Assembly: GCA_965247095.1 (NCBI GenBank)
Contig: OZ251997.1
Location: 1,696,001 to 1,760,000, forward strand
Length of the DNA: 64,000 bases
Reading direction: 5' to 3'
From: Candidatus Multivorans sp.
GTDB lineage: Bacteria > Acidobacteriota > Thermoanaerobaculia > Multivoradales > Multivoraceae
Positions 10,062-15,658 of this stretch are shown here, one piece after another; the first letter of the stretch is position 1; every line of letters starts with the position of its first letter. A program made the translations under genes and the position numbers. The notes beneath the pieces are model-generated. The model ran no database searches. It was not told the DNA's origin and worked only from the letters and a program-made list of their open reading frames with translations.

Positions 10062-10460
10062 CTAAGGCCAGTCGGTGGGTTTCGGTCGCAAAGTCAAGAA
10101 ACTGCTATCCTTGCCGCCTCGGCGGTGACGCTGGCCCCACTCGGCAAGCGTCGCGTAACTCGACAGCACGAGTCAGCGCTTGGCTTCAGCCTTTGTCCTC
10201 TAGACAGTCCGTCCATTCTCGGACGACTCACGTCGCTTGAGGGCCAACTGAACAGCCCGTGGTGCATTCAAGGCTACACCCGCCGCCCGAAATGACGCTC
10301 CGGTACGAAAACCGACTCGCGCAGGTGGAACTGCAGCGAACGCAGGGCAGCCGCCCAGCGGGTTCCGTTCATGGAATCCCGTCGCGGCCTGGTGCCCGCG
10401 CAACCGGAGACGTCCACACCGATTCAACCGACGGCGCACTCGCCGTCACCTGGAGATTTT

Positions 10461-12458
10461 GTGACCCGACGAATGCTCATCAACGCGCAGAGTTCAACCG
10501 AGCTCCGCATCGCCATCGCCAACGACTCGGTACTCGAAGACCTGAAGGTCGAGATCGCCGAGCGGGGGCTGACCCGAGGCAACATCTACTACGGCAAGAT
10601 CGCCAACATCGAGCCGAGCCTGAACGCCGCCTTCATCGACTACGGCGCCCCGAAACACGGCTTCCTGGCCATCCAGGATGTCGTGCCCGACGCGTACTAC
10701 CAGGCGGCGTCTAAGTCCCAGCGAACCAAGATCGAGGACGTACTCGTCCGCGGCCGCCCGATCGTGGTTCAGACCACGCGCGAGCCGGAGGGCAACAAGG
10801 GCGCTGCCCTGACCACGAACCTGAGTCTGGCGGGGCGCTACCTGGTGCTTTCGCCCTTCGACAAGACCAGTGGCGTTTCCCGCAAGGTCGACACCGAGGA
10901 GGTTCGCCTCAAGCTGAAGGCGATGGCGGAGTCGCTGCCGGTGCCCGACGGTGGCGGTGTGATCGTGCGCACCAACGCCCTGGGCCAGACGAAGACGGCC
11001 CTCAGTCGGGACATGAACGCGCTGCTCCGGCTATGGAAGCGCATCTCCCGGGACGCCCGCGACGCAAAGGGCACGAGGCTCCTCTACAGCGATCAGGACA
11101 TCGTGCTGCAGGGGCTGCGTGACTATCTCGACAGCGCGATCGAGGAGGTCTGGGTCGATGAAGACACCGCCTACGCACGCGCCGAGCTGTACATGCGGGC
11201 CTTCATGCCGCGCAGCAAGACGGTGCTGCACCGCTACACGGGCCGCAAGCCGCTGTTCTCGGTTTACGAACTGGAACCTCAGATCGAGAACATCTTCGAA
11301 CGCCGGGCGGAACTGCCCGCCGGCGGCTCGATCGTCATCGACCCGACCGAGGCCCTGACCGCCATCGACGTCAACTCCGGCCGGTCGAAGAAGGGATCGA
11401 GTCAGGAGGAGACCGCGGTCAACACGAACATGGAAGCTGCAGCCGAAGTCGGCCGGCAGCTTCGTCTGCGCGACATCGGCGGCCTGATCGTGGTCGATTT
11501 CATCGACATGCGCAGTCCCCGCAATCGCCGCAAGGTCGAGAAGGCGATGAAGGACGCGATGAAGGCCGACAAGGCGCGCTTCAGCGTCGGCCGGATCAGC
11601 GACAACGGGCTGCTCGAGATCAACCGCCAGCGGATCCACCAGGCGCTCCAGTTGCGCACTCACAGCGACTGCCCGAACTGTGGCGGCACCGGCCGCGTTG
11701 CCAGTCCGGACCTGGTCGCCCTGCGCCTGCTGCGCAACATCGAGTCCCACGGCGCCGCCGGCTACATGCGGGGCGTGCGGATGGCCTTGCAACCGCAGCT
11801 TGCCGACCACCTGCAGAACCGGCACCGCGAAGCGCTCGCGAAGCTCGAACGGGAGTTCGATCTCGAAATCGAGATCGCGGGCGAGCCTCAGATGCAGGGC
11901 CGCGAGCCCGAGATCAGTTGGATCGCTCGCGATCTGGCCGAAGTGAAGAAGCGCGAGCGGGAAGAGGCGCAGGAGAAGAAGCTTGAGCAGGAGATGCTCG
12001 CCACTCCCTCGATCGGCGACACCGACGAAGAACTCGAAGAAGTCGAAGAACACGAGGCGGAAGCCGGCGACGGCGCGGCCGAAGGCGCACCGAAGCGGCG
12101 CCGGCGCCGGGGCGGACGCAGGCGGCGGTCCGCAGCCGCGCGCAAGGCGAAGGAGGAGGCACCCAAGGAGGACGGCGACGCCAGGCAGGACGACGACGCC
12201 AAGCAGGCGAAGACGAGCAAGAAGCGACCCGCCAAGGCGAGGAAGACGGCGGGGACGGCCGCCATCAAGGTGCCCGGCATCGACACTCCGGCGGCGGAAA
12301 CTGCGCCCGGCGGCAATGACACGGCCGGCGACGCAGCCGCGGCGAACGGCAACGGAGCGCCGCGCCCGACCAAGCGGCGGCGACGCCGGCGGCGGCCCCG
12401 CCGGCCCCAGGCCGCCGCGGCGGGCAACGAGTCGCCGCCGGCCGAGACGGCTCCCTGA
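10461..12458 (+). CDS. rne: Ribonuclease E/G with Arg/Lys-rich disordered C-terminus
   Basis: GNIYYGKI..IEPSLNAAFIDYG, TAIDVNSG, LRLRDIGGLIVVDFIDM, CPNC Zn-link; GTG start with RBS ggag at 10452. Confidence 0.93.
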   Translation: MTRRMLINAQSSTELRIAIANDSVLEDLKVEIAERGLTRGNIYYGKIANIEPSLNAAFIDYGAPKHGFLAIQDVVPDAYYQAASKSQRTKIEDVLVRGRPIVVQTTREPEGNKGAALTTNLSLAGRYLVLSPFDKTSGVSRKVDTEEVRLKLKAMAESLPVPDGGGVIVRTNALGQTKTALSRDMNALLRLWKRISRDARDAKGTRLLYSDQDIVLQGLRDYLDSAIEEVWVDEDTAYARAELYMRAFMPRSKTVLHRYTGRKPLFSVYELEPQIENIFERRAELPAGGSIVIDPTEALTAIDVNSGRSKKGSSQEETAVNTNMEAAAEVGRQLRLRDIGGLIVVDFIDMRSPRNRRKVEKAMKDAMKADKARFSVGRISDNGLLEINRQRIHQALQLRTHSDCPNCGGTGRVASPDLVALRLLRNIESHGAAGYMRGVRMALQPQLADHLQNRHREALAKLEREFDLEIEIAGEPQMQGREPEISWIARDLAEVKKREREEAQEKKLEQEMLATPSIGDTDEELEEVEEHEAEAGDGAAEGAPKRRRRRGGRRRRSAAARKAKEEAPKEDGDARQDDDAKQAKTSKKRPAKARKTAGTAAIKVPGIDTPAAETAPGGNDTAGDAAAANGNGAPRPTKRRRRRRRPRRPQAAAAGNESPPAETAP

Positions 12459-12516
12459 CAGGCGCCGGCGGCGCCCCGCACCCTTGGGCTGGCTAACCCC
12501 CTGACAACAGGGAGGT

Positions 12517-12546
12517 TTGACAAGGACCCGGCCAATCCATAACTAT
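12517..12546 (+). promoter_or_regulatory. Putative sigma70 promoter of the intergenic RNA
   Basis: Perfect TTGACA at 12517-12522, followed 16-18 bp later by an AT-rich cataactat (imperfect -10). Confidence 0.5.
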
Positions 12547-12674
12547 CCCTTCGTAGTCGTTCCGCTCGCGTCGCGAGGCGTCGGCGGCGGTCCCGGGGTC
12601 AATCGGGGCGATCCCGCGACCGGGTGGGTTGGGACCCACCACTTTGTGGATGTGCCCGGAAAGGAGGTGGTCTA

Positions 12675-12719
12675 GTGGAATACTGCAGATGCGGCTTGAT
12701 GGAGGTGGCGGCTCCCTAG
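12675..12719 (+). CDS. Putative 14-aa peptide MEYCRCGLMEVAAP
   Basis: GTG start directly after AAAGGAGGTGGTCT (12660-12673), a near-perfect complement of the 16S rRNA 3' tail. Confidence 0.45.
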   Translation: MEYCRCGLMEVAAP

Positions 12720-12826
12720 GTAACCCCTACCTGGCGTAGGGCGCCTCCTTCGGGAAGCGATCCCACGCCATCCCATCGGCCAAACGCTTGACCGAGCCGC
12801 GCAAGCCGCGGTCCAAGAGCGTCACC

Positions 12827-12868
12827 GGAGCCCCGAGGAGCAGACGCCCTCGGGGCTCCTTCCTTTCC
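12827..12868 (+). terminator. Intrinsic terminator
   Basis: 12-bp stem ggagccccgagg (12827-12838)/cctcggggctcc (12848-12859) followed by ttcctttcc. Confidence 0.65.
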
Positions 12869-12985
12869 GATTCGCCTCAGGGCCCTGGACCCCTCAGAGC
12901 CCAGTTCCGTACAATCGCCCCCCACAATCCTGGTTCCATCCGCGCGCCCGATGACGGGCGTGCGGATTCACCGGCGGAGACGAAC

Positions 12986-15247
12986 ATGGCGGCGATCGGC
13001 ACCCCCACAAAACTGCTCGAGGGCAAACCCAAGGTCAAGGGCTCGCTGCGCTACTGCGGCGACCTCGAACGGCCCGGGCTGCTCCATGTCCGTCTGGTCA
13101 CCAGCCCGCACGCGCACGCCGAGGTGCTGAGCATCGATACCGCGGCGGCTGAGGCCATGCCCGGCGTCGCCGCCGTCATCACGGCAGCGGATCTGCCCGA
13201 ACTCCCGGCCAATAGCCGAGCGATGCTCATGCTCGCGCGCGATCGGGTCATCTTCGTCGGCCATCCGGTCGCCCTGGTCCTGGCCGAGGACGAGGCCCGG
13301 GGCGCGGATGCAGCGGAACTGGTCGAGGTCGACTACCGGCCGCTCGACGCCGCGGTCACCCTGGAACAGGCCGAGGCCCCTTCGGCGCCGCCGGTGTGGC
13401 CCGACGGCCTGCCCGGCCAGTCCGCGGAGGCAGCGGCGCACGGCGCCGGGGGCGCCGGCGACGACGGCGGCGCGGGTCCCTCGTCGCCCAACGTGACGAA
13501 CCGCATGCGCTTTGACCGCGGCGACCTCGCCGCCGGCTTCGCCGCCGCCGACGCCGTGGTCGAACGGAGCTTCACCACCGCGGCGGTTCACCAGTCCTAC
13601 CTCGAACCGCACGTGGCTCTGGTCGACCCGGACCCGATGGGCACCGGAATGACGATCTACAGCTCTACCCAGGCGACGTTCTACATCCGGGACACGGTCG
13701 CCTACGTGCTCGGCCTGTCCCACGAGCAAGTGCGCGTGATCGGCACGCCGGTCGGCGGCGGCTTCGGCGGAAAGTTCCTACTTTACGAACCGCTCCTGGC
13801 CATCGCCGCGACGCAGCTCCAGCGCCCGGTGCGACTGATGATGAGCCGAACCGAGGAGATGCTGGCCGCCACTCCCGCGCCCTCGACCCGGATCACGATT
13901 CGCGCCGGCGCCAAGCGGAGCGGCGAGCTGACGGCGCTGGAAGCCGAGCTGGCGATGGACTGCGGCTGCTTCCCATCTTCCATGACCGCACTCGCCGGCA
14001 CCCTGCTCGGCAGTTCCTACCAGACGCCGAATCAGTCCGTCGGCAGCTACGAGGTCGTCACGAACAAGCCCTCGATCGGCGCCTACCGTGCGCCGCTGGC
14101 GCCGCAGGCGGCGTTCGTGGTTGAGACCGTGCTCGATCAACTGGCCCAGGAGTTGGGGCTCGACCCCCTCGAGATGCGGCTCATGAACGCCTCGGAGTCC
14201 GGCCAGCCGATGGCCTCCGGAATGCCCTGGGCCGGCATGGGCCAGCGCCAGGTGCTGGAGGCGCTGCAGGCCCACCCCTCGTGGCAAAACCGCGAGCAGG
14301 CAAGGGCGGAGGGCCGCGGAGTCGGCATCGCGCTCGGGGCCTGGCCGGGCGGCACGGAGCCCGCGGCGGCCGCCTGCGCGCTCCAGGGCGACGGTACGCT
14401 CAAGGTTCACATCAGTTCGGCCGACATCACCGGCACGAACACGAGTCTGGCCCTGATCGCGGCCGAGGCCTTCGGCGTCGAACCGGAACGGGTCACGATC
14501 GCCACCGGCGACACCTCGAGCGGACCCTTCGCCGGCTCCTCCGGCGGCAGCAAGATCCTCTACACGGTCGGGCCGCCAGTGATTCAGGCCGCCCGTGAGG
14601 CCCGGCAGCAGACCCTGGAGCTGGCCGCGGCCACGTTCGAAGCAGCACCCGAAGACCTAGAGATCGTGGACGGAGAGGTCCGGGTCAAGGGATCGCCCGA
14701 CAAGGCCATTCCGCTCAAGAAAATCGCCCAACGCACGATGCGCTTCGGCAGCCGGCAGGCGCCGGTGTTCGGCCACGGACGCCACGCCCAGACCGGTCAG
14801 GCGCCCGGTTTCTGCGCCCAGCTCGCCGAGGTGGCGGTCGACCGGGAAACAGGCCGGGTGAAGGTCGAGAAGGTGGTCGTGGTCCAGGACTGCGGACGCG
14901 CGATCAACCCGCCGGCAGTCGAAGGGCAGATGATGGGCGGCGCCATGCAGGGCATCGGTTGGGCGCTCTACGAGGAGATGGCCTACAGCGACGACGGCCA
15001 ACTGCTGACAGCGACCCTGAACGACTACGCCCTGCCTCACTTCGTCCACGGTCCGACCGAACTCGAGACGGTGCTTGTCGAGGTGCCCTCGGACAGCGGG
15101 CCCTTCGGCGCCCGCGGCGTCGGCGAACCGCCCGTTATTCCTACCGCGGCCGCGGTCGCCAACGCAATCGCCGATGCCTGCGGCGCCCGACTCACCGAGC
15201 TGCCGATGACGCCGCCGCGCGTCCTGGCTGCCATCAACGGAGCCTGA
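12986..15247 (+). CDS. Xanthine dehydrogenase/aldehyde oxidoreductase family molybdopterin-binding large subunit
   Basis: SPHAHA, HQSYLEPH, VGGGFGGK, DCGRAINP..VEGQMMGGAMQGIG, GPFGARGVGE; ATG with RBS ggaga. Confidence 0.92.
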   Translation: MAAIGTPTKLLEGKPKVKGSLRYCGDLERPGLLHVRLVTSPHAHAEVLSIDTAAAEAMPGVAAVITAADLPELPANSRAMLMLARDRVIFVGHPVALVLAEDEARGADAAELVEVDYRPLDAAVTLEQAEAPSAPPVWPDGLPGQSAEAAAHGAGGAGDDGGAGPSSPNVTNRMRFDRGDLAAGFAAADAVVERSFTTAAVHQSYLEPHVALVDPDPMGTGMTIYSSTQATFYIRDTVAYVLGLSHEQVRVIGTPVGGGFGGKFLLYEPLLAIAATQLQRPVRLMMSRTEEMLAATPAPSTRITIRAGAKRSGELTALEAELAMDCGCFPSSMTALAGTLLGSSYQTPNQSVGSYEVVTNKPSIGAYRAPLAPQAAFVVETVLDQLAQELGLDPLEMRLMNASESGQPMASGMPWAGMGQRQVLEALQAHPSWQNREQARAEGRGVGIALGAWPGGTEPAAAACALQGDGTLKVHISSADITGTNTSLALIAAEAFGVEPERVTIATGDTSSGPFAGSSGGSKILYTVGPPVIQAAREARQQTLELAAATFEAAPEDLEIVDGEVRVKGSPDKAIPLKKIAQRTMRFGSRQAPVFGHGRHAQTGQAPGFCAQLAEVAVDRETGRVKVEKVVVVQDCGRAINPPAVEGQMMGGAMQGIGWALYEEMAYSDDGQLLTATLNDYALPHFVHGPTELETVLVEVPSDSGPFGARGVGEPPVIPTAAAVANAIADACGARLTELPMTPPRVLAAINGA

Positions 15248-15658
15248 GCCCGCTGGCCCCGGCGCCACGACCGCGGCCGCGGTCGCCGCTGCCACCCTCG
15301 GTAATCGCCGATGCCTGCGGCGCCCGACTCACCGAGCTGCCGATGACGCCGCCGCGCGTCCTGGCTGCCATCAACGGAGCCTGAGCCCGCTGGCCCCGGC
15401 GCCACGACCGCGGCCGCGGTCGCCGCTGCCACCCTCGGTAATCGCCGATGCCTGCGGCGCCCGACTCACCGAGCTGCCGATGACGCCGCCGCGCGTCCTG
15501 GCTGCCATCAACGGAGCCTGAGCCCGCTGGCCCCGGCGCCACGACCGCGGCCGCGGTCGCCGCTGCCACCCTCGGTAATCGCCGATGCCTGCGGCGCCCG
15601 ACTCACCGAGCTGCCGATGACGCCGCCGCGCGTCCTGGCTGCCATCAACGGAGCCTGA
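15166..15658 (+). repeat. 137-bp tandem repeat (about 3.6 copies) containing the last 82 bp of the molybdo-enzyme gene
   Basis: Units start at 15166, 15303, 15440, 15577 and appear identical. Confidence 0.95.

Follow-up and report, generated by a model that had tools for sequence, protein, structure and literature searches.

A probable rre-type small RNA with a complement to the whole 16S rRNA tail and a conserved mini-ORF in Candidatus Multivorans

The window, a stretch of 64,000 nucleotides (nt) from the Candidatus Multivorans sp. assembly GCA_965247095.1 (contig OZ251997.1, positions 1,696,001 to 1,760,000), contains 527 non-coding bases separating an RNase E/G gene (10371-12458; Pfam RNase_E_G, E 1.8e-93) from a molybdenum-hydroxylase gene (12986-15247; MoCoBD_1, MoCoBD_2 and Ald_Xan_dh_C), both on the + strand. 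On the same strand, the region between them holds an RNA unit extending from a TTGACA promoter at 12517 to a 12-bp terminator ending, with its tail, at 12868. This unit carries an 18-nt stretch able to pair with the entire single-stranded 3' tail of 16S ribosomal RNA (rRNA), ending on the G of the GUG that opens a predicted frame of 14 codons. We consider, with moderate confidence, that the locus is a free-standing small messenger RNA (mRNA), or structured RNA, of the type described as rreB in Bradyrhizobiaceae and rreR in Rhodobacterales (Hahn et al. 2016, RNA Biol 14:1353, PMC5711450). An initial annotation of the window had proposed a ribosome-binding RNA or a dual-function small mRNA, and this is still the best reading.

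Boundaries, docking stretch and mini-ORF

All features described below lie on the + strand unless otherwise indicated. The -35 hexamer TTGACA (12517-12522) was invariant in the genus-level sequences (25/25), and in the other families examined TTGACA lay mostly about 138-149 nt 5' of the Shine-Dalgarno (SD) sequence. It is followed, after an 18-nt spacer, by a -10-like hexamer, AACTAT (12541-12546), the aligned site of which is AACTAT or CAGCAT in relatives. Transcription from this sigma-70-type promoter would start near 12553-12556. The putative intrinsic terminator (12827-12868) consists of a 12-bp stem (12827-12838/12848-12859), a 9-nt loop and a UUCCUUUCC tail; its stem is present in the RNAalifold consensus (columns 329-338/357-366), with changes on both sides at five pairs. 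The RNA would therefore run from about 12553 to 12868, a length of about 316 nt. A simple promoter and terminator scan listed neither of these signals, owing to the weak -10 (AACTAT) and the 9-nt loop, respectively. The initial annotation had described a self-contained unit of about 320 nt, and this was borne out by the conservation of promoter and terminator and by the structured nature of what lies between them; its landmarks (TTGACA, ggtgggt/acccacc, ccctac/gtaggg, the UUCG hairpin, a bulged stem at 12784-12822, the terminator, the GTG-initiated open reading frame (ORF) at 12675-12719, GGAGGTG at 12701-12707 and CCTCCTT at 12744-12750) were all found where it had placed them. Three listed ORFs overlap the unit (12517-12675 on the + strand, 12493-12642 and 12716-12925 on the - strand); the alignments of relatives contained single-base gaps in the region of these ORFs, considered as a whole.

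The 16S-complementary stretch, GGAAAGGAGGTGGTCTAG (12658-12675; hereafter referred to as the docking stretch), is able to pair along the complete 3' tail of the 16S rRNA that the organism itself encodes. The single 16S gene of this genome ends in ...GGCTGGATCACCTCCTTTCT (also written ...CTGGATCACCTCCTTTCT), and the tail paired is CUGGAUCACCUCCUUUCU. All 18 positions pair with the last 18 nt of the 16S rRNA, three of them as G-U, and the 18th is G12675, the G of the GTG start codon. The initial annotation had recognised a shorter version of this site, AAAGGAGGTGGTCT (12660-12673), pairing over 14 nt with two G-U pairs; the site is present and the pairing proved longer. From the position of helix 45 in E. 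coli and Thermus, we take the free 16S tail to be about 17 nt long. The predicted duplex energy was -29.7 kcal/mol for the 18-nt pairing, versus -10.2 kcal/mol for the six-base core GGAGGU. In an ungapped scan of both strands of the genome (4,617,209 bases), 18/18 was reached at only two places, the docking stretch and the antisense strand of the 16S gene, followed by two sites at 17/18. The initial claim of an extreme 16S-complementary SD in front of a mini-ORF thus stood, the site being, 16S antisense apart, unique in the genome. Many relatives carry AGAAAGGAGGTGATCCAG, the perfect complement of the 16S tail, and in 19 members found with the covariance model described below (R1), the SD variants (GGGGGTGATCC, GGAGGTGATTC and GGAGGCGATTC) kept the pairing through G-U pairs or lost single pairs.

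Candidate partners for the docking stretch within the RNA were also considered. Helix P4, between GGAY 5' of the pseudoknot strand described below and RUCC after the SD, was 76.9% paired, with no changes on both sides, and 482 of 500 shuffles scored at least as high. With this sequestering helix unsupported, the docking stretch has no conserved intramolecular partner, apart from two bases common with the pseudoknot. A pairing of the SD with the pyrimidine-rich tail of the terminator, present in the minimum-free-energy fold, was lost in the consensus fold and was not adopted. The initial annotation had suggested that CCTCCTT (12744-12750) might act as a sequestering anti-SD; this idea had to be abandoned, the motif forming one side of the UUCG hairpin in which it lies and showing no conservation as an anti-SD. 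The CCUCC found after the stop codon in other members was rejected in the same role, as it appears, by eye, to pair with a downstream GGAGG.

The small ORF (sORF; 12675-12719) has a GTG start, 14 codons (MEYCRCGLMEVAAP) and a TAG stop. A script with loose anchors recognised 130 of the 134 family loci given to it (four failed the anchors), and an in-frame start and an open frame were found in every one of them (130/130). Several of these loci are the same place twice, and there were 89 unique ORFs, encoding 13 amino acids (aa) in 10 cases, 14 aa in 70 and 15 aa in nine, with GTG (83), ATG (3) or TTG (3) as the start codon and TAG (63), TAA (22) or TGA (4) as the stop codon. In 87 of the 89, the distance from the E/K codon to the stop codon was exactly 15 nt. 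Length differences within the ORF corresponded to whole codons, those of a single base (L050 and L093) falling between the SD and the start codon. Where the GTG had been lost (L080, L087, L113, L114 and L125), an in-frame ATG was present one codon downstream, and synonymous third-position changes were observed within the genus at codons 2, 3, 4, 12 and 13. Given the conserved frame, the whole-codon indels, the replaced starts, the fixed stop and the synonymous changes, the ORF looks translated.

Only a weak consensus emerges for the peptide, x4-6-[G/S]-[L/F]-x-[E/K]-V-A-x-x. Of its residues, E-V-A are nearly invariant, including in the 19 R1-found members, which were not selected by the search pattern and in which the frame was also kept; R1 contains the SD and E-V-A columns, a source of bias, but does not model the openness of the frame. 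The E-V-A codons coincide with a helix strand, GGAGGUGGC. The CxC motif highlighted in the initial annotation did not prove to be a feature of the family: Cys6, its second cysteine, was present in 5/12 unique genus-type ORFs, and neither cysteine was conserved outside the genus.

A conserved fold around the docking stretch

The minimum-free-energy fold was more stable than those of shuffled sequences on both strands (z = -3.70 on the + strand and -4.18 on the - strand), and the strand cannot be told from folding energy alone; the G-U and U-G pairs that are frequent in the alignment fit the + strand only. RNAalifold, applied to 25 sequences, yielded 78 pairs, 24 of which had compensatory changes. 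A hand-built model of 45 pairs, with two pseudoknot-type contacts, was tested on 54 diverse sequences (hereafter referred to as A2). Of 2417 cells, 84.4% were paired, versus 36-52% when the 3' partners were slid by 1-3 columns. Changes on both sides were found at 28 of the 45 pairs, versus 17.4 +/- 2.1 in shuffles (0/500 reached the observed value), counts that provide support but are not probabilities, because related sequences inflate them. L087, with its unalignable 5' region, was left out of the structural sets, L059 (23-nt insertion) was left out of A3, and L007, L009, L015, L008 and L035, which are near-duplicates or over-long, were left out of A1.

These comparisons show the docking site to sit between two conserved domains of the predicted fold. 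The 5' domain comprises a hairpin, the loop of which is pseudoknotted to the bases just 5' of the docking site, and a second hairpin. The first of these hairpins, P2/P2a (12588-12622; loop 12601-12609, AAUCGGGGC), was 90% paired, with changes on both sides at five of its six pairs. In the pseudoknot, UCGGG (12603-12607), in the P2a loop, pairs with CCCGG (12655-12659), which overlaps the first two nucleotides of the docking stretch; across the family, this contact joins the P2a loop to the seven bases that immediately precede the docking stretch and was 84.1% paired, with changes on both sides at five of the seven pairs (GGGCG/CGCCC to GAGCG/CGCTC, for example). The second hairpin, P3 (12623-12640; GGUGGG/CCCACC, loop UUGGGA at 12629-12634), was 97.2% paired, again with changes on both sides at five of six pairs. 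5' of these elements, the minimum-free-energy fold contains a hairpin of variable sequence, P1 (12562-12587), corresponding to RNAalifold columns 17-20/45-48, with one compensatory change.

A contact is proposed between the P3 loop (UGGGA, 12630-12634) and a CCC(C) junction of the 3' domain (UCCCA, 12761-12765); across members, UGGG[N] and [N]CCCA were 82.6% paired. The G-run of the loop and the C-run of the junction varied in length in step, being 3/3 in 33 sequences, 4/4 in seven and other combinations in 13, these being raw counts in which at least L054 and L082 (GGGG with CCCC) and L092 appeared, by eye, to be mis-parsed.

The closing helix of the 3' domain was shown by the same comparisons to pair the last five sense codons (GGAGGUGGCG) with CGCCAYC. 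The 5' strands of two predicted long-range helices, C2 (12693-12700) and C1 (12701-12710, containing GGAGGUGG), occupy 12693-12710, and their 3' strands, CGCCAUC (C1, 12766-12772) and AUCGGCC (C2, 12775-12781), occupy 12766-12781, in both the consensus fold (RNAalifold columns 163-180/257-274) and the A2 model. Helix C1 was 99.5% paired; its 5' strand is fixed by the search pattern, so only G-C to G-U variation is visible there. The initial annotation had interpreted GGAGGTG (12701-12707) as a second SD core; the motif is indeed present, 9 nt before the stop, but it is the 5' strand of this conserved helix. Between the strands of the closing helices lie hairpins H2 (12725-12741; CCCUAC/GUAGGG, read from the sequence), at the place of which members outside the genus have CCUCC...GGAGG (by eye, uncounted), and H3 (12743-12758), which has a UUCG loop and contains CCTCCTT. 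The H3 equivalent in other members (CCCC-loop-GGGG) was 80.5% paired, with changes on both sides at all four pairs. A stop hairpin, not evident in the genus of the window, was 66% paired, with changes on both sides at 5/5 pairs, and by eye the stop codon lies in a hairpin loop in many members. The bulged hairpin at 12784-12822 is variable and outside the conserved core, being absent from L018, L019 and L033 and from other families. In L008 (G024), about 135 extra nucleotides were observed at its place, between the closing helix and the terminator.

The coincidence of reading frame and helix bears on two other explanations for the locus. According to the first, the RNA is purely non-coding: the stretch would have no task beyond binding to the 16S tail or 30S subunits (acting, for example, as a sponge, parking site or assembly check), and the frame would be kept for RNA-level reasons without being productively translated. 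The ORF forms a helix strand in its 3' half, with C1 almost always paired and part of C2 covarying, the N-terminal residues are not conserved between families, the conserved tertiary fold, with its pseudoknot and loop-junction contact, is typical of functional RNAs, and rreB, in the available text of its description, is hardly translated (PMC5711450), all of which is consistent with this explanation. It accounts poorly, however, for a frame kept in all recognised loci with length differences of whole codons, for the replacement of a lost GTG by an in-frame ATG and the fixed position of the stop, for the synonymous changes within the genus, and for the finding, in the same text, that rreB fusions are translated and that the start codon affects RNA turnover (PMC5711450). 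We regard it as unlikely.

The second explanation places the function in the product of 13-15 aa (x4-6-G-L/F-x-E-V-A-x-x), with the 5' domain acting like a riboswitch or a thermometer, as a sensor gating the ribosome-binding site via the pseudoknot. It is suggested by the conservation of the ORF and of E-V-A, also in the members found by the model outside the pattern selection, and by the position of the pseudoknot, which abuts and overlaps the docking stretch. On the other hand, no known riboswitch was matched in the window (Rfam), clustering of the nearest ORFs revealed no conserved partner or processing gene nearby, and E-V-A coincides with the GGAGGUGGC strand, so selection at the peptide level is not needed to explain it. 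Moreover, an SD of 17-18 nt followed by GUG lowers translation in rreB instead of raising it, and synthetic RreB and RreR peptides were unstructured, according to the available text (PMC5711450). This makes a micro-peptide gene under riboswitch-like control decidedly unlikely.

Distribution, genomic context and expression

No Rfam 15 family matched any part of the window at its gathering score (0 matches), and in 12400-13050 the matches were at chance level only (E 0.23-9), in agreement with the initial annotation, which had recognised no landmarks of known RNAs; RNase P and signal recognition particle (SRP) RNA were not searched for separately in the genome. One weak full-length match, to Ms_IGR-5, stayed well below the threshold (14.9 bits, versus 45 needed). 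In BLAST searches, the intergenic region matched all 24 same-genus genomes (24/24), with 76-94% identity over about 12493-12918, and the core (12620-12720) matched 5/16 genomes of other families of the order. The genome itself contains one full copy of the RNA unit. The SD, the sORF and the structure were all strongly kept in relatives, as would be expected of the conserved element the initial annotation had supposed.

In a phylum sample, 15 of 401 genomes contained an exact pattern that takes in both the SD and the second GGAGGTGGC, and none contained the reversed control pattern. A pattern scan of the named genome collection yielded at least 120 stretches. Among the 80 loci listed, 72 were true members with the full architecture, the other eight (L066, L068, L083, L084, L102, L112, L121 and L123) being chance matches to the pattern without it. 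Judging by record titles, 60 of these 72 listed members belong to Acidobacteriota (Thermoanaerobaculia, Candidatus Multivorans/Multivoradales, Holophagales and Vicinamibacteraceae), three to Gemmatimonadota, two to Candidatus Krumholzibacteriia, one to Candidatus Eiseniibacteriota and one to Fibrobacteraceae; the remaining five have titles that give no phylum.

The covariance model R1 (137 positions, 53 sequences) extends from P2 to the stop hairpin. In a class sample, it was positive in 28 of 151 genomes, including 27 of the 36 from the order of the window, and none of the 114 genomes from other orders of the class gave a match, searches of more than 40 genomes being run with stricter filters that may miss weak members. 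In a phylum sample searched in the same way, 24 of 151 genomes were positive, with whole families positive (2/2, 5/5 and 6/6). There was always one match per positive genome in both samples.

The 71 member loci examined for genomic context (the two nearest ORFs on each side, called crudely as the longest frames of at least 90 aa) had no neighbour family in common outside the genus; the sole neighbour families in the clustering were those of the genus of the window, namely RNase E/G upstream. With promoter and terminator conserved and context outside the genus not, the RNA unit is, on comparative grounds, probably a free-standing gene. This argues against a cis-acting element, whether a leader or attenuator of the hydroxylase gene or a piece of the 3' untranslated region of the RNase E/G mRNA. 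Such an element might be suspected from the position of the unit between two same-strand genes and from the resemblance of a short ORF followed by a terminator to a leader-peptide attenuator. However, the flanking genes differ in other families and phyla, no neighbour family was common to members outside the genus, no riboswitch model matched, the unit has its own conserved -35, the hydroxylase gene has its own promoter-like site (TGGACC-18-TACAAT at 12886-12915, listed by the simple scan), and the consensus fold contains no alternative anti-terminator pairing. We consider a cis element very improbable.

Two repeats were observed nearby. An element of about 35 nt with an inverted repeat (...CCGCGCGCCCGATGACGGGCGTGCGG...) lies at 12929-12966, between the terminator and the hydroxylase start codon; it has more than 40 copies in the genome, is also present in genus relatives and looks like a repetitive extragenic palindrome (REP-type). 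At 15166-15658, the 3' end of the hydroxylase gene and the sequence that follows are duplicated by a perfect tandem repeat (137 bp x 3.6 copies, 100% matches), visible in the ORF list as a repeated C-terminal ...ADACGARLTELPMTPPRVLAAINGA; the repeat could be genuine or a product of assembly.

Metatranscriptome runs from several studies contain part of the window region. Contigs from four runs, three recorded as RNA (three studies) and one only guessed to be RNA, were compared with 12200-13200 and covered 12564-12762 (X1), 12555-12831 (X2), 12571-12779 (X7) and 12553-12783 (X3). They derive from close relatives, with 1-6 differences. The intervals 12370-12540 and 12846-13050 had no contig cover, which was not used as evidence. 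The initial annotation would have been contradicted by a lack of expression; contigs from RNA libraries do cover the unit, a weak hint of expression only, because contigs cannot show ends, strand or level. Two short contigs from X2 and X7, with depths of 150 and 108, match only 12646-12679 and then diverge; they may come from a distant, highly expressed relative of the RNA in the same communities.

Interpretation and comparison with known systems

The initial annotation had presented the locus as the best candidate in the window for an undescribed system. It is not of an undescribed kind, the same arrangement having been published as rreB/rreR (PMC5711450). In the available text of that paper, the Bradyrhizobium rreB mRNA has a promoter and a terminator of its own and measures 165 nt, of which about 8 nt precede a 17-nt 16S complement that includes the G of the GTG of a 14-aa sORF; rreR encodes 18 aa. 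The rreB complement is predicted to be largely sequestered in a hairpin (PMC5711450). The RNA co-sediments with 30S subunits, in a manner dependent on the 5' bases of the complement, its translation is very weak because of the long SD and the GTG, and changing GUG to UAG increased its half-life from 10 to 37 min (PMC5711450). Analogues are described from four orders of Alphaproteobacteria; their context is not conserved and their peptides are unrelated, and the authors give the function of rre genes as unknown (PMC5711450). No further literature on rreB/rreR was found, the only citing papers being those matched by its title phrase.

That paper treats as rre genes those with a 16S complement of at least 16 nt directly 5' of an sORF, ending on the first base of GTG, a short conserved sORF and an independent transcript. 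The window locus has an 18/18 complement directly 5' of its sORF, ending on the G that begins the GTG, and an sORF of 13-15 aa conserved in 130/130 loci. As for the transcript, the -35 and the terminator are conserved, and the RNA contigs, which do not show ends, cover the unit, one of them extending 26 nt further 5'. By these operational criteria, applied to sequence features, the locus is an rre gene.

Metagenomes were scanned for the 19 nt in common (GAAAGGAGGTGATCCAGTG), which gave at least 120 stretches; nearly all of the 80 loci listed continue with an sORF of 12-31 codons. Among these 80, one group of 14-aa ORFs ending in ...KRCHLAGIAR (16-18 loci, depending on where the boundary is drawn) was taken as rreB-like, on the basis of ORF length and of the promoter type in the few loci read: three were read, and had an alphaproteobacterial-type promoter and a short leader. 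In the same three loci, the SD has a potential pairing partner within the ORF, a stretch resembling an anti-SD, in agreement with the sequestered SD predicted in the paper; the window family has no such stretch. A second group, of 18 aa (MSRVILE...), was taken as rreR-like from its ORF length. The other listed groups comprised several MSHC... groups of 21-25 aa and a small EVVAS/EVVAP/EVVPS/EVAAS group. Applied to the 80 listed loci, R1 gave six matches at E 3e-6 or better, all in the latter group, and five marginal ones (E 8e-4 to 8e-3) outside the rreB-like and rreR-like groups. Further unrelated sORF families were observed among listed loci L199-L278, such as MSHCLSPRSPAS..WILAS.EVR.A (25 aa) and MSHSSTRSSVTVTWASAFEVRA (22 aa). 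A plasmid search for an Azospirillum-type rre gene (91-nt query) gave 14 weak matches, of which the Bradyrhizobium one (H4) was rejected as a chance match without SD or sORF.

By analogy with rreB, the RNA of the window would dock on 30S subunits via its unusually long SD-anti-SD helix and its translation would be no more than weak, clearance from the start site being slowed by that helix and by the GUG; the lifetime of the RNA might depend on what the ribosome does with it. The geometry of the fold suggests two further steps. A translating ribosome would have to unfold the 3' domain (helices C1 and C2), and, at the stop codon, the internal GGAGGUGG, 9 nt upstream, would be well placed to re-pair with the anti-SD of the terminating ribosome.

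Several observations weigh against this reading. Three of the 18 docking pairs in the window are G-U, and access to the docking stretch may be regulated rather than constitutive, because the pseudoknot uses its first two nucleotides. Much of the nucleotide conservation of the ORF (GGYUUG and GGAGGUGGC) is also explained by RNA pairing, and the peptide is poorly conserved apart from E-V-A. The SD and GGAGGTGGC were fixed by the search pattern and are contained in R1, which biases the sets towards the keeping of both. One contig (X2, record 5) runs 26 nt 5' of the predicted start, resembling the -10 region of a relative, and the contigs stem from relatives, instead of being reads from the organism itself that show a discrete transcript. 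What is said of 30S binding, translation and turnover derives from rreB, a distant alphaproteobacterial analogue with no detectable homology: R1 matched none of the rreB-like or rreR-like loci among the 80 listed metagenome loci, a result that concerns loci assigned by inference and not the published sequences. Overexpression of rreB had no growth phenotype, according to the available text (PMC5711450). Finally, one member, L087, a Thermoanaerobaculia metagenome-assembled genome, appears to lack the 5' domain: TTGACA lies about 50 nt 5' of the SD, and P1, P2 and the 5' strand of P3, present in its closest relatives, are missing, which may reflect faulty assembly or a deletion of the domain that occurred in nature.

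A more ambitious interpretation is that this multi-phylum, tertiary-folded RNA senses ribosome state, serving to gauge free ribosomes or to check newly made 30S subunits; we hold it to be conceivable, but doubtful. Full-tail pairing would dock those 30S subunits whose 16S tail is free and has matured correctly, a short obligatory round of translation would unfold the 3' domain and break the contact between the P3 loop and the junction, and the anti-SD would re-pair with the internal GGAGGUGG at the stop codon. The folded and ribosome-opened forms would then differ in stability or in partners. If true, this would be a housekeeping RNA both structured and briefly translated, like transfer-messenger RNA (tmRNA).

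The reading as an rre-type RNA has broader consequences. The window family extends the ribosome-docking arrangement to at least five phylum-level groups (by record labels), and its large covariation-supported fold, unlike rreB, argues for an RNA-level function at the ribosome. Many independent sequences are now available for separating RNA from peptide constraints, and structural studies of a full-tail SD-anti-SD helix could use the family as a natural substrate. The class of sORFs with a full-tail SD would be much larger than annotated, because the same 19-nt SD and GTG precede several unrelated peptide families among the metagenome loci listed, and Rfam has no model matching the locus.

Among known systems, tmRNA (SsrA) offers a likeness as a structured RNA in which pseudoknots flank a short frame read briefly by the ribosome. 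The window RNA differs from it in having no tRNA-like domain, in an apparent SD-dependent entry at GUG instead of trans-translation, and in its intrinsic terminator. A divergent housekeeping RNA (tmRNA, 6S, RNase P or SRP) missed by Rfam might nevertheless be imagined, from the short ORF flanked by pseudoknotted structure and the stop codon lying, by eye, in a hairpin loop in many members. However, tmRNA (RF00023; G000:3250158-3250501, 134.7 bits) and 6S RNA (RF00013; G000:3622688-3622874, 71.7 bits) were found elsewhere in the same genome, Rfam gave no tmRNA or 6S match at the locus, and the recruitment signals are an SD and a start codon. We attach almost no credence to this explanation. Dual-function small RNAs, such as SgrS/SgrT, RNAIII/hld and SR1/SR1P, combine conserved RNA structure and a conserved small ORF in one transcript. 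These are not known beyond a genus or a family and act by pairing with target mRNAs; the window family, by contrast, is found in several phyla, with 16S rRNA itself as the conspicuous partner for pairing. In Bacteroidetes, the strong-SD case is reportedly one of autoregulation of rpsU, a ribosomal-protein mRNA; no link of the window RNA to a ribosomal-protein gene was found, none having been looked for. Sensing of ribosome state through a strong SD is described there in the available text of PMC7797042, and the likeness is that an unusually good SD could let an mRNA report on the availability of the ribosome's anti-SD tail.

The closest comparison is with rreB and rreR. These are small free-standing transcripts with their own promoter and terminator, as the window RNA is predicted to be; both they and the window RNA have a complement of at least 16-17 nt to the whole 16S tail ending on the G of GTG, both have a short, clade-conserved sORF (14-18 codons there and 13-15 aa here), and in neither is genomic context conserved across lineages. 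The peptides are unrelated. The rre class is obscure, having been published, as far as the available text goes, from Alphaproteobacteria only and with its function unsolved (PMC5711450), whereas the window family occurs in records of Acidobacteriota, Gemmatimonadota, Fibrobacteraceae, Krumholzibacteriia and Eiseniibacteriota. The rreB RNA is 165 nt long, versus about 250-316 nt for the window family, in which, unlike in rreB, a pseudoknotted 5' domain (about 100 nt) and a 3' domain of several helices are conserved, and the rreB complement is predicted to be sequestered, whereas that of the window family has no conserved partner. On these comparisons of sequence and predicted fold, the window family is a structurally distinct member of the rre class, because R1 misses the rreB-like and rreR-like groups, its RNA is about 100-150 nt longer, and its 5' and 3' domains are proposed to contact one another around the docking site and the ORF. 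What is new here is this architecture: a covariation-supported 5' pseudoknot, a proposed loop-to-junction contact and a 3' domain whose closing helix holds the last codons of the frame.

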